Shown here: positions 16,204 through 43,424 of the stretch, piece by piece
How the letters are laid out: each line of letters starts with the position of its first letter
Numbering within the stretch: position 1 is the first letter of the stretch
DNA from: Streptomyces virus Yaboi
Lineage: Duplodnaviria > Heunggongvirae > Uroviricota > Caudoviricetes
Virus record (IMG/VR): IMGVR_UViG_2974625447_000001
Coordinates: 57,808 to 121,807 of that record
DNA: 64,000 nt
Strand: one strand, 5' to 3'
Notes under the pieces: generated by a model
Database searches by the model: none
What the model saw: only the letters and a program-made list of their open reading frames with translations
Told to the model about the DNA's origin: nothing
Program-made: the position numbers and the translations under genes

Positions 16204-16725
16204 ATGACGGTACTTCTGCGAACAATTCATGGAAGCCATCTGTATGGCCTCGCTCACGCAGACAGCGATAAGGATATCTACGAAGTAGTTACAACCACTC
16301 GCACTAAGCGTAAGCGAAACATTAAGCAGACCATTTCAAATGGTGTTGACAAGACGACGGTAGATATGTCAACATTTATGAGGATGGTTGATGATTGCGT
16401 ACCTCAAGCACTTGAAGCGCTATGGACGCCGGTAGCTGAGATCGATAAGATCCACGAATTCCGGACACAATATCGAGTGAATCGCGCCAAGATGAAGGAT
16501 GTGTACGTAAGAACTGCTCTGAATTTTGCCAAGAGTGACGGAATTAAGCAGAAGAAGCACGCAGTGCGGCTCTTGCTGAACCTTGGTCACACTTTGGAAT
16601 TTGGAAAGTTCAATCCTCGATTGGATGCAATGGATAAGATCATTATCAATGCATCTGTCGGAGATGCGGGAAAGTATGATGCTGTGTTCGACGCTCTTAT
16701 TGATGAGGTCGGCCGGTGGATATGA
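16204..16725 (+). CDS. Pol-beta-superfamily nucleotidyltransferase
   Basis: HGSHLYGLAHADSDKDIY = GS-x9-DxD NTase signature; 173 aa. Confidence 0.5.
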   Translation: MTVLLRTIHGSHLYGLAHADSDKDIYEVVTTTRTKRKRNIKQTISNGVDKTTVDMSTFMRMVDDCVPQALEALWTPVAEIDKIHEFRTQYRVNRAKMKDVYVRTALNFAKSDGIKQKKHAVRLLLNLGHTLEFGKFNPRLDAMDKIIINASVGDAGKYDAVFDALIDEVGRWI

Positions 16726-16734
16726 TCCCACCAT

Positions 16735-16811
16735 TGGGGCGTATACCCTCTGTCTGATAAACAGTTGAAAGGTTAAGTGGTCACATGTGGGTTCAACTCC
16801 CACCGTCCCAA
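16735..16811 (+). tRNA. non-canonical tRNA-like gene W1 (anticodon-like loop GAT, Ile)
   Basis: acceptor tggggcg/cgtccca (7 bp) and T-arm gtgggTTCAACTcccac are canonical. The only anticodon-like hairpin (tctgt-ctGATaa-acagt, U33/A37) sits at positions 15-31 directly after a 7-nt linker tataccc. A 21-nt region with a D-loop-like AAGTGG follows. Confidence 0.45.
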
Positions 16812-28013: not shown

Positions 28014-28091
28014 GGGTCTGACAGGTGTGACGTTACTGAAAGCCGACAATGGACCGGTAACGGATAGTGGGTTCGACTCCCACCAGATCCA
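28014..28091 (+). tRNA. tRNA-like gene, anticodon undetermined (atypical middle region)
   Basis: acceptor gggtctg/cagatcc and T-arm gtgggTTCGACTcccac are canonical. The interior has a 6-bp stem cgttac/gtaacg around a 20-nt loop that contains AATGG, with no 5-7-5 anticodon arm. Confidence 0.35.
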
Positions 28092-28334: not shown

Positions 28335-28448
28335 AGGAGTGTAGTTTAATTGGCAAAACCGCGAAATGCACTGCCGAAAGTGATGTGGCGTAGCCCGCAG
28401 TGAGTAGGTAACAGAGTAGCAGTTGCGGGTTCGAGTCCCGTCGCTCCG
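28335..28448 (+). ncRNA. tRNA-like RNA with about 40-nt internal insertion (pseudo-tRNA or insertion-containing tRNA)
   Basis: 5' acceptor-like aggagtg plus canonical D-arm gtttAATTGGCAaaac; 3' T-arm gcgggTTCGAGTcccgt plus cgctccg; 64 nt between them with no anticodon arm. Confidence 0.3.
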
Positions 28449-28585
28449 CTAGCCTGAGACGACGATCCGATGTAGGTCCCCTAGGGCTTGCGCAGGCCCG
28501 AAGGGCATTCGGGAAAGGTTCCTAGCTAGGTCCGTCTATCAATAGGGTGAGAGTTTTGACAGTTTCCTCATAATAAACTGTCCCC

Positions 28586-28878: not shown

Positions 28879-28956
28879 GCCCTAGTATCGCCACTGGCTT
28901 CTAACCAGTCGTTAACAGCGTAATGGAGTATGCAGGTTCGAGTCCTGTCTAGGGTA
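28879..28956 (+). tRNA. non-canonical tRNA-like gene W2 (anticodon-like loop TCT, Arg)
   Basis: acceptor gccctag/ctagggt; 7-nt linker tatcgcc; hairpin actgg-ctTCTaa-ccagt at positions 15-31; 22-nt region with AATGG; T-arm gcaggTTCGAGTcctgt; same layout as W1 and W3. Confidence 0.45.
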
Positions 28957-29474
28957 CTTTCTACAATGGAGGCAACATGCCTGTAACGATGACTGAGCTG
29001 TTCCTTGCTGGTGTGATTGAGCATCACGGAGTAGAGGATAATGGCGAAGCTCTTGTGAAAATCAACTGGGATGTGCTTCGTGAGTACAACTATGATCTCT
29101 ATGTTCATATGAAGGCGGCGGAGATTGACGCCGACCTAGATGATGATACAATGGACTCATGAATACATACGAAGTAGCTGTGAGCCTATTGGTTACAGTG
29201 GAAGCCCCAGATGAGTCAGATGCAAGAGAAGCGGTCCAAGATGCATTTGACGTAGGTGAGTTTTGCGGACTGAACGTCAAAGACGTAGAGGTTGAGATTC
29301 TTGAATCTTGATTTCAACACAGTCTCCAAAATGGTAGATGATGTTCAGTTCATGTTAAAGTGTACTTTCTGTACAGAGCCAGCAACTACAGAGTTGACAG
29401 TAGAGGTTGGGCCTGATATGGTAGTACCAATGCCGAGCTGCGAGGGCTGCAAGGCTAACGGCTGAAAAGCCAAT

Positions 29475-33196: not shown

Positions 33197-33273
33197 GTCT
33201 CCATATCTCCTCTGCCTCCTAAGCAGTTGAAAGAGTAACCGGATACATGTGGGTTCGACTCCCACTGGGGACA
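33197..33273 (+). tRNA. non-canonical tRNA-like gene W3 (anticodon-like loop CCT, Arg)
   Basis: acceptor gtctcca/tggggac; linker tatctcc; hairpin tctgc-ctCCTaa-gcagt at 15-31; 21-nt region tgaaagagtaaccggatacat (near-identical to W1); T-arm gtgggTTCGACTcccac. Confidence 0.45.
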
Positions 33274-33516: not shown

Positions 33517-33591
33517 GGGGGCGTAGCTCAGTCTGGTCGGAGCAATGCACTGATAATGCATCGGTCGCTGGTTCAAATCCAGCCGTTCCTA
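33517..33591 (+). tRNA. tRNA-Ile (anticodon GAT)
   Basis: acceptor gggggcg/cgttcct; D-arm gctcAGTCTGGTCGgagc; anticodon arm atgca-ctGATaa-tgcat; T-arm gctggTTCAAATccagc. Confidence 0.75.
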
Positions 33592-33664
33592 CGTAGCAAG
33601 GAGTCTATCGCTGTAACCGATGGAATTAAATGCCCGCAATTCAGGAAGGGGCGTCCTAGCTTAT

Positions 33665-36758: not shown

Positions 36759-36830
36759 GGTTGCGAGCCAGGGATAAGCTAGGCGGGTCTGTAAAACCCT
36801 ACCTTGGGAGTTCGAATCTCCCCGCAACCA
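36759..36830 (+). tRNA. class-I tRNA with anticodon GTA (Tyr-type anticodon, short variable arm)
   Basis: acceptor ggttgcg/cgcaacc perfect; anticodon loop ctGTAaa on 4-bp stem gggt/accc; T-arm gggagTTCGAATctccc. Confidence 0.45.
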
Positions 36831-41763: not shown

Positions 41764-43424
41764 GTGTTTTGACGCCTTCTAGTAGCGCTGCTAGAATGAC
41801 AGAGATGGAAGGTTGCGGGTTCGATTCCCGCCCCCGGATTTTAAGGAGTATCATGAAAGATGATCTGATTGAGATCTCAGATGAAGAGTTTCGAGCGGCG
41901 TACCAAAGAAGGTTGAAGGCTCTAGGAATTACTGAGCAAGATCTTCTACGTCAAGCTGCGGCAGGAAACTTTGACACACATCAAATTAGAATGCTATGGT
42001 TTACAGTAGGCGGCTGGAAGAACGGCAAGCCTGTAGTCATGGCGTGAGGAGTGAAATGAACTACAACCCTGGTTAAGTAGCTTGACAAAGCTACACAACA
42101 ACAACTAGGATGTGATGTATGGCTACTGGCAAGGAGCGAGGCTTCAAGGACTGGAAGGGCTCCAAGGAGTTCCGCCGAAGCGCTCGTAATTACACTGAGT
42201 CCGAGACCGTTGGTAAGGGCAAGAAGAAGAACACTCGCAAGTGGTGCAAGGGAAAGGTCGGACGTAAGCACGTCCTTGGGCTTTTCAACAAGTACACCTG
42301 GCGACACGGGTACAAGTGCATCAATTGTGGGCGCGAGTTTCTTTGGCATTTTAGCGACCCGAACCGTGACAAGTTCGACTATGTTCCCGTAAGCTGGGAT
42401 GACCCTAGGGCGAACTGATGCAACTTAAGATGTACGCAATTGCCTGTGACCAAGCAGAAGCTATAAAGAACTGTTACACAGGCAAATATACAAACCAACC
42501 ATTCTGGCCTGATCATAAAACTCTGCTCCCATATCTGGAGCGAGCTAAGGCCGACAATCCTGATCTCCCATTGAAGATCTTTGTCATTAAGGTGAGTGGA
42601 TAAAATTGGCCGGTAACAAGAACAGCCGTAAGAAGTGGCTTTGCCTTGATTGTGGTGTAGACACTGGCAGGGTTGGCGAACACTTCTTTCTGATCAACGA
42701 GGTCTGGTCCTTGACAGGACTTGGGCACAAGGGTATGCTCTGTATTGAGCACGTTGAGAAGCGCATCGGTAGGCGTCTTGTTCCGGCCGATTTTGCTTCT
42801 GTGTGGATCAATGGACCGCGCGGCGGAATGAAGAGTCAGCGCCTTGCCAATCGATTGGGATACAAATGAATTGGAATTGGGTAGACGCGGCTCCAGAGGC
42901 CGTAGCTTATTACAAAAAGAAGAAGGCTGTCAAAGTCAACACAGTTGGCGACATAGAGGTCTGGCGAGATGTTTACGGCTATTCACGATTGATTCGTGAA
43001 AAGGACGGTAAGATTCAGGTCAGCGGTCGAGACTTCTTCACGATCAAGGACGCCACCGATGCAGCCTCTGCGTGTTAAGGTTGGCGATACTGTCTGTGAT
43101 TGCAGATACCTCCACCAAAAGGTGTTGAAGATCTGGCCAGACGGTGATACAGTAACTCTAGAAGATGGGGCAAGCTGCTCCATACGGCACTGCCTTGATG
43201 AAGCAAATCACGAATGGCAGCACCCAGAAGAAAACTAATCAGGAGGCCCGATGAGCTGGTTCAAATCAAAGAAGGGAAAGACTCAGCAAATCACTGAGCC
43301 TTCAAGACTGAGCCTAGATATTCTGGACATTCCAGGAATCGATGATGAAATCGACCAATGTGTTTGTGCGGAAGATTTTCTTGATCTCCTCGAAAAGTAT
43401 CGGAAAAATTAACCAGGAGGACCG

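Follow-up and report, generated by a model that had tools for sequence, protein, structure and literature searches.

Known exceptions to the standard transfer RNA (tRNA) either lose arms, as in mitochondria, or alter stem lengths, as in the tRNAs for selenocysteine (Sec) and pyrrolysine (Pyl) and in allo-tRNAs. The D-armless tRNAs of mitochondria are about 54-65 nucleotides (nt) long and have lost the contacts between G18G19 and the T-loop, while permuted or split tRNA genes give a mature tRNA that is canonical after processing. Allo-tRNAs and tRNAs of the (8/4) or (9/3) type have an altered division between acceptor stem and T-stem; they retain the D hairpin, and their V-arm is long (Mukai et al. 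2017, PMC5389517). Here we examined three tRNA-like genes, W1, W2 and W3, in a 64,000-nt stretch of the genome of Streptomyces virus Yaboi (referred to below as the window), for which a preliminary description had proposed a shared, non-canonical architecture. The window matches the Yaboi record (NC_048730/MH727564) with 100% identity. Yaboi belongs to the genus Karimacvirus in actinophage cluster BE; it is a siphovirus with a 131-kb genome that includes a large tRNA array and a transfer-messenger RNA (tmRNA), and window coordinates equal those of NC_048730 minus 57,807. The comparative evidence given below makes it probable that W1, W2 and W3 are working elongator tRNAs, namely tRNA-Ile(GAU), tRNA-Arg(UCU) and tRNA-Arg(CCU), in which the core is threaded in a non-standard way.

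Re-reading of the window confirmed the coordinates and sequences claimed for the three genes (Table 1). Each has a 7-base-pair (bp) acceptor stem and a T-arm with a 5-bp stem and a TTCRANT loop. The acceptor stems had been called perfect, but each contains one G-U pair (G5-U in W1, G1-U72 in W2, U4-G in W3), and the T-arm is canonical without being literally GTTCGANTC throughout, as the W1 loop reads TTCAACT. The anticodon hairpin was found where it had been placed, at nt 15-31, with a 7-nt loop, U33, A37 and the anticodons GAU, UCU and CCU, but only W2 has the full 5-bp stem that had been described; in W1 and W3 the pair 15:31 is U.U, leaving 4 bp and a mismatch. The loops read CTGATAA in W1, CTTCTAA in W2 and CTCCTAA in W3, with U33 and a purine at 37. 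Also present as described were the linker TAT(A/C)(C/G/T)CC, a 21-22-nt segment before the T-arm, which contains AAGTGG, AATGG or AACCGG and terminates in CAT or TAT, and the pairings of nt 11-13 with 37-39 (ACC/GGT in W1, CTC/GAG in W3) or with 40-42 (CGC/GCG in W2). A local D-arm hairpin (10-13:22-25) is absent from all three genes, and the acceptor and anticodon arms lie only 7 nt apart.

Standard tRNA finders handled these genes poorly. ARAGORN called 41 tRNAs and the tmRNA in the window and missed W1, W2 and W3, and neither ARAGORN nor the RF00005 covariance model gave a canonical cloverleaf for any of them in another register. Scores against RF00005 fell just above the gathering threshold of 29 (Table 1), compared with mostly 45-70 bits for the canonical tRNAs of the window. 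In the RF00005 alignment the 15-nt D-arm was swapped for 4 nt and about 18 nt were inserted in the variable region. A scan of the + strand for a 7-bp acceptor stem combined with a T-arm returned known tRNAs, W1-W3, two further odd tRNA-like genes and one spurious overlap; the same scan of the - strand of the window returned no matches. The occurrence of the W1-W3 acceptor/T-arm architecture is far beyond chance.

Homologues provided evidence for a helix enclosing the anticodon arm. In a gapless alignment (A3) of 53 distinct 76-nt members of the alpha subtype, the structure composed of the acceptor stem, 11-13:37-39, 16-19:27-30 and the T-stem was 94% paired, as compared with 72% in shuffled columns and 38-52% in slid registers. 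The helix 11-13:37-39, whose reality had been suggested from the three genes, was paired in 159 of 159 cells across the 53 sequences, and two of the three pairs showed compensatory changes (11:39 is CG in 44 sequences, AU in 7 and UA in 2; 12:38 is CG in 33 and UA in 20). Because G37 was fixed by the search pattern, the invariance of C13 is no evidence. We then pooled 129 distinct sequences from the A15 and G15 scans for the alpha subtype, among the matches listed. Here the helix was Watson-Crick in 128 sequences, in six combinations (CCC/GGG 68, CTC/GAG 33, ACC/GGT 16, TCC/GGA 5, CGC/GCG 4, CAC/GTG 2), and the remaining sequence had a single G-U wobble. The observed pairing was reached in 0 of 5000 shuffles, with slid registers far lower. 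When mutual information with average product correction was computed for all column pairs, the top 13 were 7 acceptor pairs, 3 anticodon-stem pairs, 12:38, 11:39 and 42:52. The anticodon stem of the W1 type reads TCTGT/ACAGT or, in related phages, TCACT/AGTGT, which is likewise a compensatory change. That the three genes share one architecture was supported by a covariance model of the new layout (R1), which scored all three well (Table 1), including W2, a sequence outside its training set; the top canonical tRNA of the window reached 23.5 bits, and by this model exactly three window genes, W1-W3, belong to the re-threaded family.

The strand 3' of the D-like helix is 11-13 nt long and reads U-A-R-(2-4 nt)-GG-N-...-Y before the T-stem. 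Of the 69 distinct sequences with A at R15, 68 have U as base 48; of the 60 with G at R15, 52 have C as base 48, 7 have G and 1 has U. Both alpha scans had left position 48 free. The A and G states of position 15 occur on several helix and acceptor backgrounds, which indicates repeated independent switches of 15:48. The Levitt pair R15:Y48 is a tertiary pair of canonical tRNA. Judged from the alignments, the 15:48 covariation is the behaviour of a Levitt pair, with the D-loop and base 48 on the junction strand. At the sequence level, the U8/A14, R15:Y48 and G18G19 signatures are all present on this relocated strand. The mutual-information scan found no covarying pairs inside columns 40-52, hence no variable stem-loop.

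The base after GG (column 47) covaries with anticodon nt 35 (column 23). All 28 members with an Arg anticodon (28/28) have A here, and 58 of the 59 Ile members have U. The canonical Arg and Ile tRNAs of the window conform to this pattern, with A at the corresponding place in both Arg tRNAs (2/2) versus 4 of 39 others. Since A20 and C35 are the main identity elements for bacterial arginyl-tRNA synthetase (ArgRS), the post-GG base appears to match the A20 element. The discriminator is A in 59 of 59 Ile members.

These regularities bear on whether W1-W3 might be D-armless tRNAs with a long unstructured variable loop, in which the 13-nt strand is not a D-loop and the L-shape has an alternative, mitochondrial-like support. 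The Rfam model does align them so, omitting the D-arm and placing an insertion in the variable region. However, the strand keeps U-A-R..GG with fixed spacing, and its R and the base adjoining the T-stem covary as Levitt 15:48 does. In addition, the post-GG base acts as identity element 20, the W2 strand is near-identical to the D-stem 5' strand and D-loop of its canonical orthologue, and the length is a normal 76 nt as opposed to the 54-65 nt generally known from mitochondria. We consider a D-armless structure very unlikely.

The re-threaded scaffold was found in at least 270 IMG/VR contigs. Pattern scans of this database yielded at least 119 contigs for the A15 alpha subtype, at least 120 for the G15 alpha subtype, 27 for the beta subtype and, for the W2-like subtype, 14 stretches of which about 10 are true members; the W2 subtype occurs in L010, L017, L301, L306 and L307. 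Orthologues of W1 were present in about 77 GenBank records of Streptomyces phages, nearly all unannotated, and a 73-nt UCU form in 26 other Streptomyces phage records. When W3 and the 73-nt form were used as BLAST queries, matches beyond Streptomyces phages were obtained in a crAss-like Kehishuvirus (GAU), Microbacterium phage Zooman (ACG), Rhodococcus phage NiceHouse (ACG) and a 735-kb uncultured phage (UCU). ARAGORN calls overlapped 2 of 147 family occurrences. Two results agree with the preliminary description as a whole: the covariance model found no canonical cloverleaf, and the layout is kept in homologues.

Among the matches listed, the parsed members carried only Ile and Arg anticodons (UAU, GAU, UCU, CCU, ACG, UCG) and, in five cases, CAU. 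On this comparative basis the re-threaded class is widespread and, apart from the few CAU members, confined to Ile and Arg anticodons. The five CAU members (within L311-L428, from IMG/VR) are of the G15 alpha subtype and have the Ile-type U after GG; from their sequences, the scaffold may serve here as a lysidine-dependent tRNA-Ile2 or as a Met tRNA. In 61 aquatic contigs a UAU form was found beside a canonical tRNA-Arg(UCU), these being the only two tRNAs found in the fetched stretch. In this aquatic group (L035-L153) the re-threaded Ile(UAU) gene lies about 80-1,200 nt from the canonical Arg(UCU) gene, and AUA and AGA make up a rare-codon pair.

A scan of the genomes of 185,579 species gave two true members among the 120 matches listed, the rest being due to chance; by our own estimate, about 600 chance matches to the pattern are expected in 596 Gb. 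The first true member (L282) is in JBAZIW010000001.1, a 362,763-nt scaffold with a dense tRNA array from a metagenome-assembled genome (MAG) assigned to 'Candidatus Paceibacterota'. This contig is also listed as viral in IMG/VR (3300029288_000055), with the same re-threaded tRNA, and is probably a huge phage binned as a bacterium of the candidate phyla radiation (CPR). The second is on a MAG contig with 24 tRNAs in 8 kb.

Canonical tRNA genes were found at the sites of W1-W3 in related phages. The W1 site holds a canonical tRNA-Ile(gat) in phage Tomas and a canonical tRNA-Ile in TomSawyer; the W2 site holds a canonical tRNA-Arg(tct) in StarPlatinum and many others; and the W3 site holds a canonical tRNA-Arg(cct) in several relatives, with identical acceptor stem and anticodon loop. 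The W1 form itself has two variants and, in almost every phage of cluster BE, is located 5' of an FtsK-like gene. Swapping of canonical and re-threaded genes at syntenic sites argues for equivalent function. In W2, GCGT-AATGGAGTA is almost the same as GCGT-AGTGGATA, the D-stem 5' strand plus D-loop of the canonical orthologue, but lies 3' of the anticodon arm whereas the orthologue's copy lies 5' of it. Inversion of the central segment was considered and ruled out, as the anticodon loop CTGATAA reads forward as in canonical orthologues.

The presence of canonical genes at the same sites in relatives, together with homing endonuclease genes interspersed in the arrays, would also be compatible with W1-W3 being decayed or rearranged pseudogenes left by recombination in the tRNA array. 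Covariation effectively refutes this, and we assign it only a very slight probability: compensatory changes were seen in every helix, the layout is kept in phages of Streptomyces, Bacteroides, Microbacterium and Rhodococcus as well as in hundreds of contigs from metagenomes, and the anticodons are Ile and Arg only, each with matching identity bases. The earlier view that the genes are functional rather than decayed thus agrees with the covarying anticodon stem, the layout kept across distant phages and the identity elements that track the anticodon.

Annotation of these loci was inconsistent. W3 is without annotation in Yaboi and Stanimal, and in GenBank W2 (28879-28957, corresponding to 86686-86764 of NC_048730) is labelled tRNA-Val(aac), while the identical sequence is unannotated in Genie2, BoomerJR, Stanimal and Sollertia. 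Comparative data suggest that the Val label is very likely wrong, because the orthologues are tRNA-Arg(tct) and UCU lies in the hairpin that covaries. The label is what favours reading these genes as canonical tRNAs in another register, for example W2 as tRNA-Val(AAC). ARAGORN found no such cloverleaf, however, the UCU loop sits on a covarying stem in a gene whose orthologues are tRNA-Arg(tct), and the 'AAC' lies inside the variable 8-nt bulge, which is CATTAACA in the Ile(UAU) members of the W2 subtype. With the comparative data contradicting it, this reading has next to no likelihood.

Among the tRNAs of the window, W2 (UCU) and W3 (CCU) carry the sole anticodons for AGA and AGG, as had been noted, and the other Arg tRNAs carry UCG and ACG; this inventory covers the 64-kb window out of the 131-kb genome. 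AGA and AGG account for 30% of Arg codons in the long open reading frames (ORFs) of the window, which has a GC content of 48.9%. The Streptomyces host, at about 72% GC, uses AGA and AGG rarely. As the only AGA/AGG decoders in a window with such usage, W2 and W3 would supply decoders that are scarce in a high-GC host.

Some of the evidence would suit a different role, in which W1-W3 are tRNA-like decoys or regulators, such as baits for host anticodon nucleases or substrates of phage RNA-repair enzymes, and deliver no amino acid. W1 is redundant with the canonical tRNA-Ile(GAU) of the same phage, a gene of the RlaP family lies directly 5' of W1 and an RtcB-like ligase gene near the Zooman member, and the window also encodes an acceptor/T-arm RNA without anticodon arm at 28014-28090. 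A decoy would not need synthetase identity elements, yet A20 is found in 28/28 Arg and A73 in 59/59 Ile members. Nor would a decoy account for the interchange with canonical genes at syntenic sites, for W2 and W3 being the only AGA/AGG decoders of the window despite the 30% share of these codons, or for the many aquatic phage stretches in which the re-threaded form is the only tRNA found with an Ile anticodon. We judge a decoy role unlikely.

For W1-W3 as elongator tRNAs, we propose the following fold. The alignments show that, after U8-A9-N10, strand 11-13 leads via C14 straight into the anticodon arm, which is followed by a 5-nt bulge (8 nt in W2) and then by the complementary strand 37-39 (40-42 in W2). 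Because the D-like helix encloses the anticodon arm, the junction is three-way and not four-way. The element had been described as a D-arm-like helix with the anticodon arm nested inside it; it seems better described, as a refinement, as a D-arm with both strands re-threaded around the anticodon arm. Strand 11-13 would stand for D-stem positions 23-25 and C14 for position 26, strand 37-39 for positions 10-12, and the junction strand for positions 13-21 plus 48, while the 5-8-nt bulge would replace the nucleotides of the variable loop and of position 9, which line the groove of the D-stem. The connections 43 to 10, 9 to 22 and 21 to 49 would take the place of the usual 9 to 10, 21 to 22 and 48 to 49, and with the U8.A14, R15.Y48 and G18/G19-T-loop contacts rebuilt, a normal L-shape would result. 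Canonical tRNA has its D-stem stacked on the anticodon stem, nucleotides 39-43/44 followed in space by 10-13, and A21 next to U8, which makes these three connections geometrically plausible.

The transcripts would be matured as other tRNAs are, and CCA, not being encoded, must be added. Charging would be performed by the host isoleucyl-tRNA synthetase (IleRS), through A73, or by ArgRS, through A20 and C35. The codons read would be AUC/AUU for W1, AGA (and AGG) for W2 and AGG for W3, all heavily used by the 49%-GC phage. As for the reason behind such a fold, we would guess first, with low confidence, that it lets the tRNA escape host nucleases directed at tRNAs or other factors reading the D-arm side. 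The broader proposal of an undescribed, phage-restricted class of translating tRNAs that keeps the L-shape contacts, can be charged by IleRS or ArgRS and has spread among unrelated phages by evading host anticodon nucleases or other tRNases that read the D-arm side is doubtful when taken as a whole.

Several points weigh against the reading of W1-W3 as re-threaded elongator tRNAs. The three-dimensional mapping derives from sequence logic and canonical tRNA structure, and we infer the expression, processing, charging and ribosomal use of the re-threaded tRNAs from sequence. Thermodynamic folding of W1-W3 and three relatives gave z-scores of -0.8 to -1.1 for W1-W3, with the helix present only in the minimum-energy fold of W1; such folding predicts tRNA-like cores poorly. 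GAAAG, GTGGGTTC and GCATAACGG were fixed by the search patterns, so constancy at those positions is no evidence, and the number of sequences does not equal the number of independent events. The beta subtype (TAATGGC...GCATAA) has an invariant helix TGGC/GCA on both strands, so there is no covariation there, and two G13 to A variants are uncompensated in one alternative register. Only two Watson-Crick pairs remain in the helix of the Zooman, L149 and L050 members. W1 duplicates a canonical tRNA-Ile(GAU) at 33517-33592 and is not strictly needed for decoding, and the proposed fold gives no reason for the use of the scaffold in Ile and Arg tRNAs only.

Table 1. Positions of W1, W2 and W3 and their predicted elements in the window, with segment sequences and supporting evidence.
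Feature	Position	Strand	Sequence or pairing	Evidence
W1, predicted re-threaded tRNA-Ile(GAU), 76 nt + discriminator A	16735..16811	+	TGGGGCG TAT ACC C TCTGT CTGATAA ACAGT TGAAA GGT TAAGTGGTCACAT GTGGG TTCAACT CCCAC CGTCCCA A	RF00005 30.3 bits; R1 92.7 bits
W1 acceptor stem, 5' strand	16735..16741	+	pairs with 16804-16810	7/7 pairs covary among homologues
W1 U8-A9-U10 linker	16742..16744	+	TAT	invariant across alpha family
W1 putative counterpart of D-stem 3' half	16745..16747	+	ACC; partner GGT 16771-16773	columns 11-13:37-39 100% paired, compensatory changes
W1 anticodon arm (U.U + 4 bp)	16749..16765	+	loop CTGATAA; anticodon GAT 16756-16758	covarying stem
W1 purine-rich bulge, anticodon stem to D-like helix	16766..16770	+	UGAAA	NGAAA constant in alpha members, partly pattern-fixed
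W1 putative counterpart of D-stem 5' half	16771..16773	+	GGT	covariation with 11-13
W1 junction strand	16774..16786	+	TAAGTGGTCACAT; U13-A14-A15..G18G19-U20..A21, last base U48	15:48 covariation; post-GG base tracks anticodon
W1 T-arm	16787..16803	+	GTGGG / TTCAACT / CCCAC	RF00005 alignment; homologue alignment
W1 acceptor stem, 3' strand, and discriminator A73; CCA not encoded	16804..16811	+		sequence; A in 59/59 Ile members
W2, predicted re-threaded tRNA-Arg(UCU)	28879..28956	+	GCCCTAG TAT CGC C ACTGG CTTCTAA CCAGT CGTTAACA GCG TAATGGAGTAT GCAGG TTCGAGT CCTGT CTAGGGT A	RF00005 32.8 bits; R1 47.6 bits
W2 acceptor stem	28879-28885 / 28949-28955	+		
W2 D-like helix	28889-28891 / 28918-28920	+	CGC with GCG	
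W2 anticodon arm	28893-28909	+	TCT at 28900-28902	
W2 8-nt bulge	28910-28917	+	CGTTAACA	
W2 junction strand	28921-28931	+	TAATGGAGTAT	
W2 T-arm	28932-28948	+		
W3, predicted re-threaded tRNA-Arg(CCU)	33197..33273	+	GTCTCCA TAT CTC C TCTGC CTCCTAA GCAGT TGAAA GAG TAACCGGATACAT GTGGG TTCGACT CCCAC TGGGGAC A	RF00005 29.9 bits; R1 84.1 bits
W3 acceptor stem	33197-33203 / 33266-33272	+		
W3 D-like helix	33207-33209 / 33233-33235	+	CTC with GAG	
W3 anticodon arm	33211-33227	+	CCT at 33218-33220	
W3 bulge	33228-33232	+	TGAAA	
W3 junction strand	33236-33248	+	TAACCGGATACAT	
W3 T-arm	33249-33265	+		

The ORF preceding W1 (16204-16725, + strand) ends 9 nt 5' of it and matched the Pfam family RlaP, of the RNA-repair pol-beta family, with E = 6e-6. 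In relatives this ORF is annotated 'nucleotidyltransferase' or 'tRNA nucleotidyltransferase'; the match is to RlaP rather than to a classical CCA-adding enzyme. Genes for RNA repair (RtcB-like ligase, nucleotidyltransferase) were also found near members in Zooman and NiceHouse, with an RtcB-like ligase gene close to the Zooman member. As a hypothesis only, such neighbours may hint at pressure from host tRNA nucleases.

Other tRNA-like elements were noted on the + strand of the window. The region 28014-28090 encodes a 77-nt RNA that combines a 7-bp acceptor stem with the same T-arm sequence as W3 and in which a long hairpin (CGUUACUG...CCGGUAACG) encloses a loop containing AAUGGA. Compensatory changes (GTTAC/GTAAC versus GTCAG/CTGAC in L016) accompany its conservation in phages of cluster BE, and it could be a tRNA-like decoy or handle. 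We rejected it as a fourth re-threaded member, as it has no anticodon arm and scored only 19.7 bits with R1. At 36759-36829, between canonical tRNA-Tyr (36602) and tRNA-His (36833), is a tRNA-like gene of 71 nt. Its anticodon is GUA (Tyr), its variable region is short and its D-arm is irregular. It was missed by ARAGORN and by RF00005 at the gathering threshold, and it is kept in relatives, where its acceptor and T-stems covary. The region 28335-28449 scored 31.2 bits with RF00005 over 115 nt, resembles a tRNA-like gene with an insert of about 40 nt and was not called by ARAGORN. Finally, relatives (e.g. L007:20147-20226) encode an 80-81-nt acceptor/T-arm RNA family, GACTCCA...GGAGGGTTCGAATCCCTCTGGGGTC, also without an ARAGORN call, and at the matching place the window (41780-41840) has the T-arm-like sequence GCGGGTTCGATTCCCGC.

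If W1-W3 are charged and used, they would be, going by the literature found, the first reported natural full-size tRNAs with the tertiary core in a different strand order. The synthetases, EF-Tu, RNase P, the CCA-adding enzyme and the ribosome would then tolerate a re-threaded core, which would offer a new scaffold for orthogonal tRNA engineering. That standard finders miss these genes exposes a systematic gap in annotation, and Ile(UAU/GAU) and Arg decoders are consequently undercounted in phage tRNA repertoires and in codon-adaptation analyses. That the scaffold is restricted to phages, and to Ile and Arg, raises a testable question about host immunity that targets tRNAs.

The preliminary description had been aware of no class with this topology, and we likewise found none described in the full-text literature that was searched, subscription-only papers lying outside that scope; neither a 2020 review of non-canonical tRNAs nor the allo-tRNA paper (PMC5389517) contains such a layout. 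Allo-tRNAs resemble the present genes in being non-canonical, in coming from metagenomes and phages and in the frequency of the UAU anticodon, but the branch is the standard 7/5 in all re-threaded members. Permuted and split tRNA genes, as in Cyanidioschyzon merolae and Nanoarchaeum, also depart from the textbook order of segments; in W1-W3, by contrast, the acceptor strands lie at the gene ends in normal order, and the internal permutation would stay in the mature RNA. Class II tRNAs (Leu, Ser, Tyr, Sec) share the extra nucleotides between anticodon arm and T-arm. Theirs form a stem-loop of their own beside a normal D-arm, whereas here these nucleotides are unpaired, carry D-loop motifs and accompany replacement of the D-arm, in tRNAs for Ile and Arg.

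The D-armless mitochondrial tRNAs (metazoan mitochondrial tRNA-Ser(AGY) and those of nematodes) are alike in having no D hairpin, an anticodon helix that is effectively extended and trouble with tRNA finders. The phage class differs from them in its length of 76-77 nt, its conserved GG, its canonical T-loop and its core signatures on a relocated strand. The closest likeness is to canonical class I tRNA (RF00005; bacterial and phage Ile and Arg), with which W1-W3 share the 7-bp acceptor stem, the 5-bp T-stem and T-loop, the anticodon loop with U33 and R37, U8, A14, R15:Y48 and G18G19, A20 in Arg and A73 in Ile, a length of about 76 nt, CCA unencoded in most members, location in phage tRNA arrays and syntenic interchange. 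They differ from it in that the local D hairpin is missing and the D-stem strands flank the anticodon arm in a three-way junction, in that the anticodon arm starts at nt 15 and not 27 and the D-loop runs directly into the T-stem, in the purine-rich bulge between the anticodon stem and the D-like helix, and in pair 27:43, a conserved U.U in W1, W3 and the alpha subtype. At the level of sequence, W1-W3 possess each class I tRNA feature that was checked except the D hairpin.

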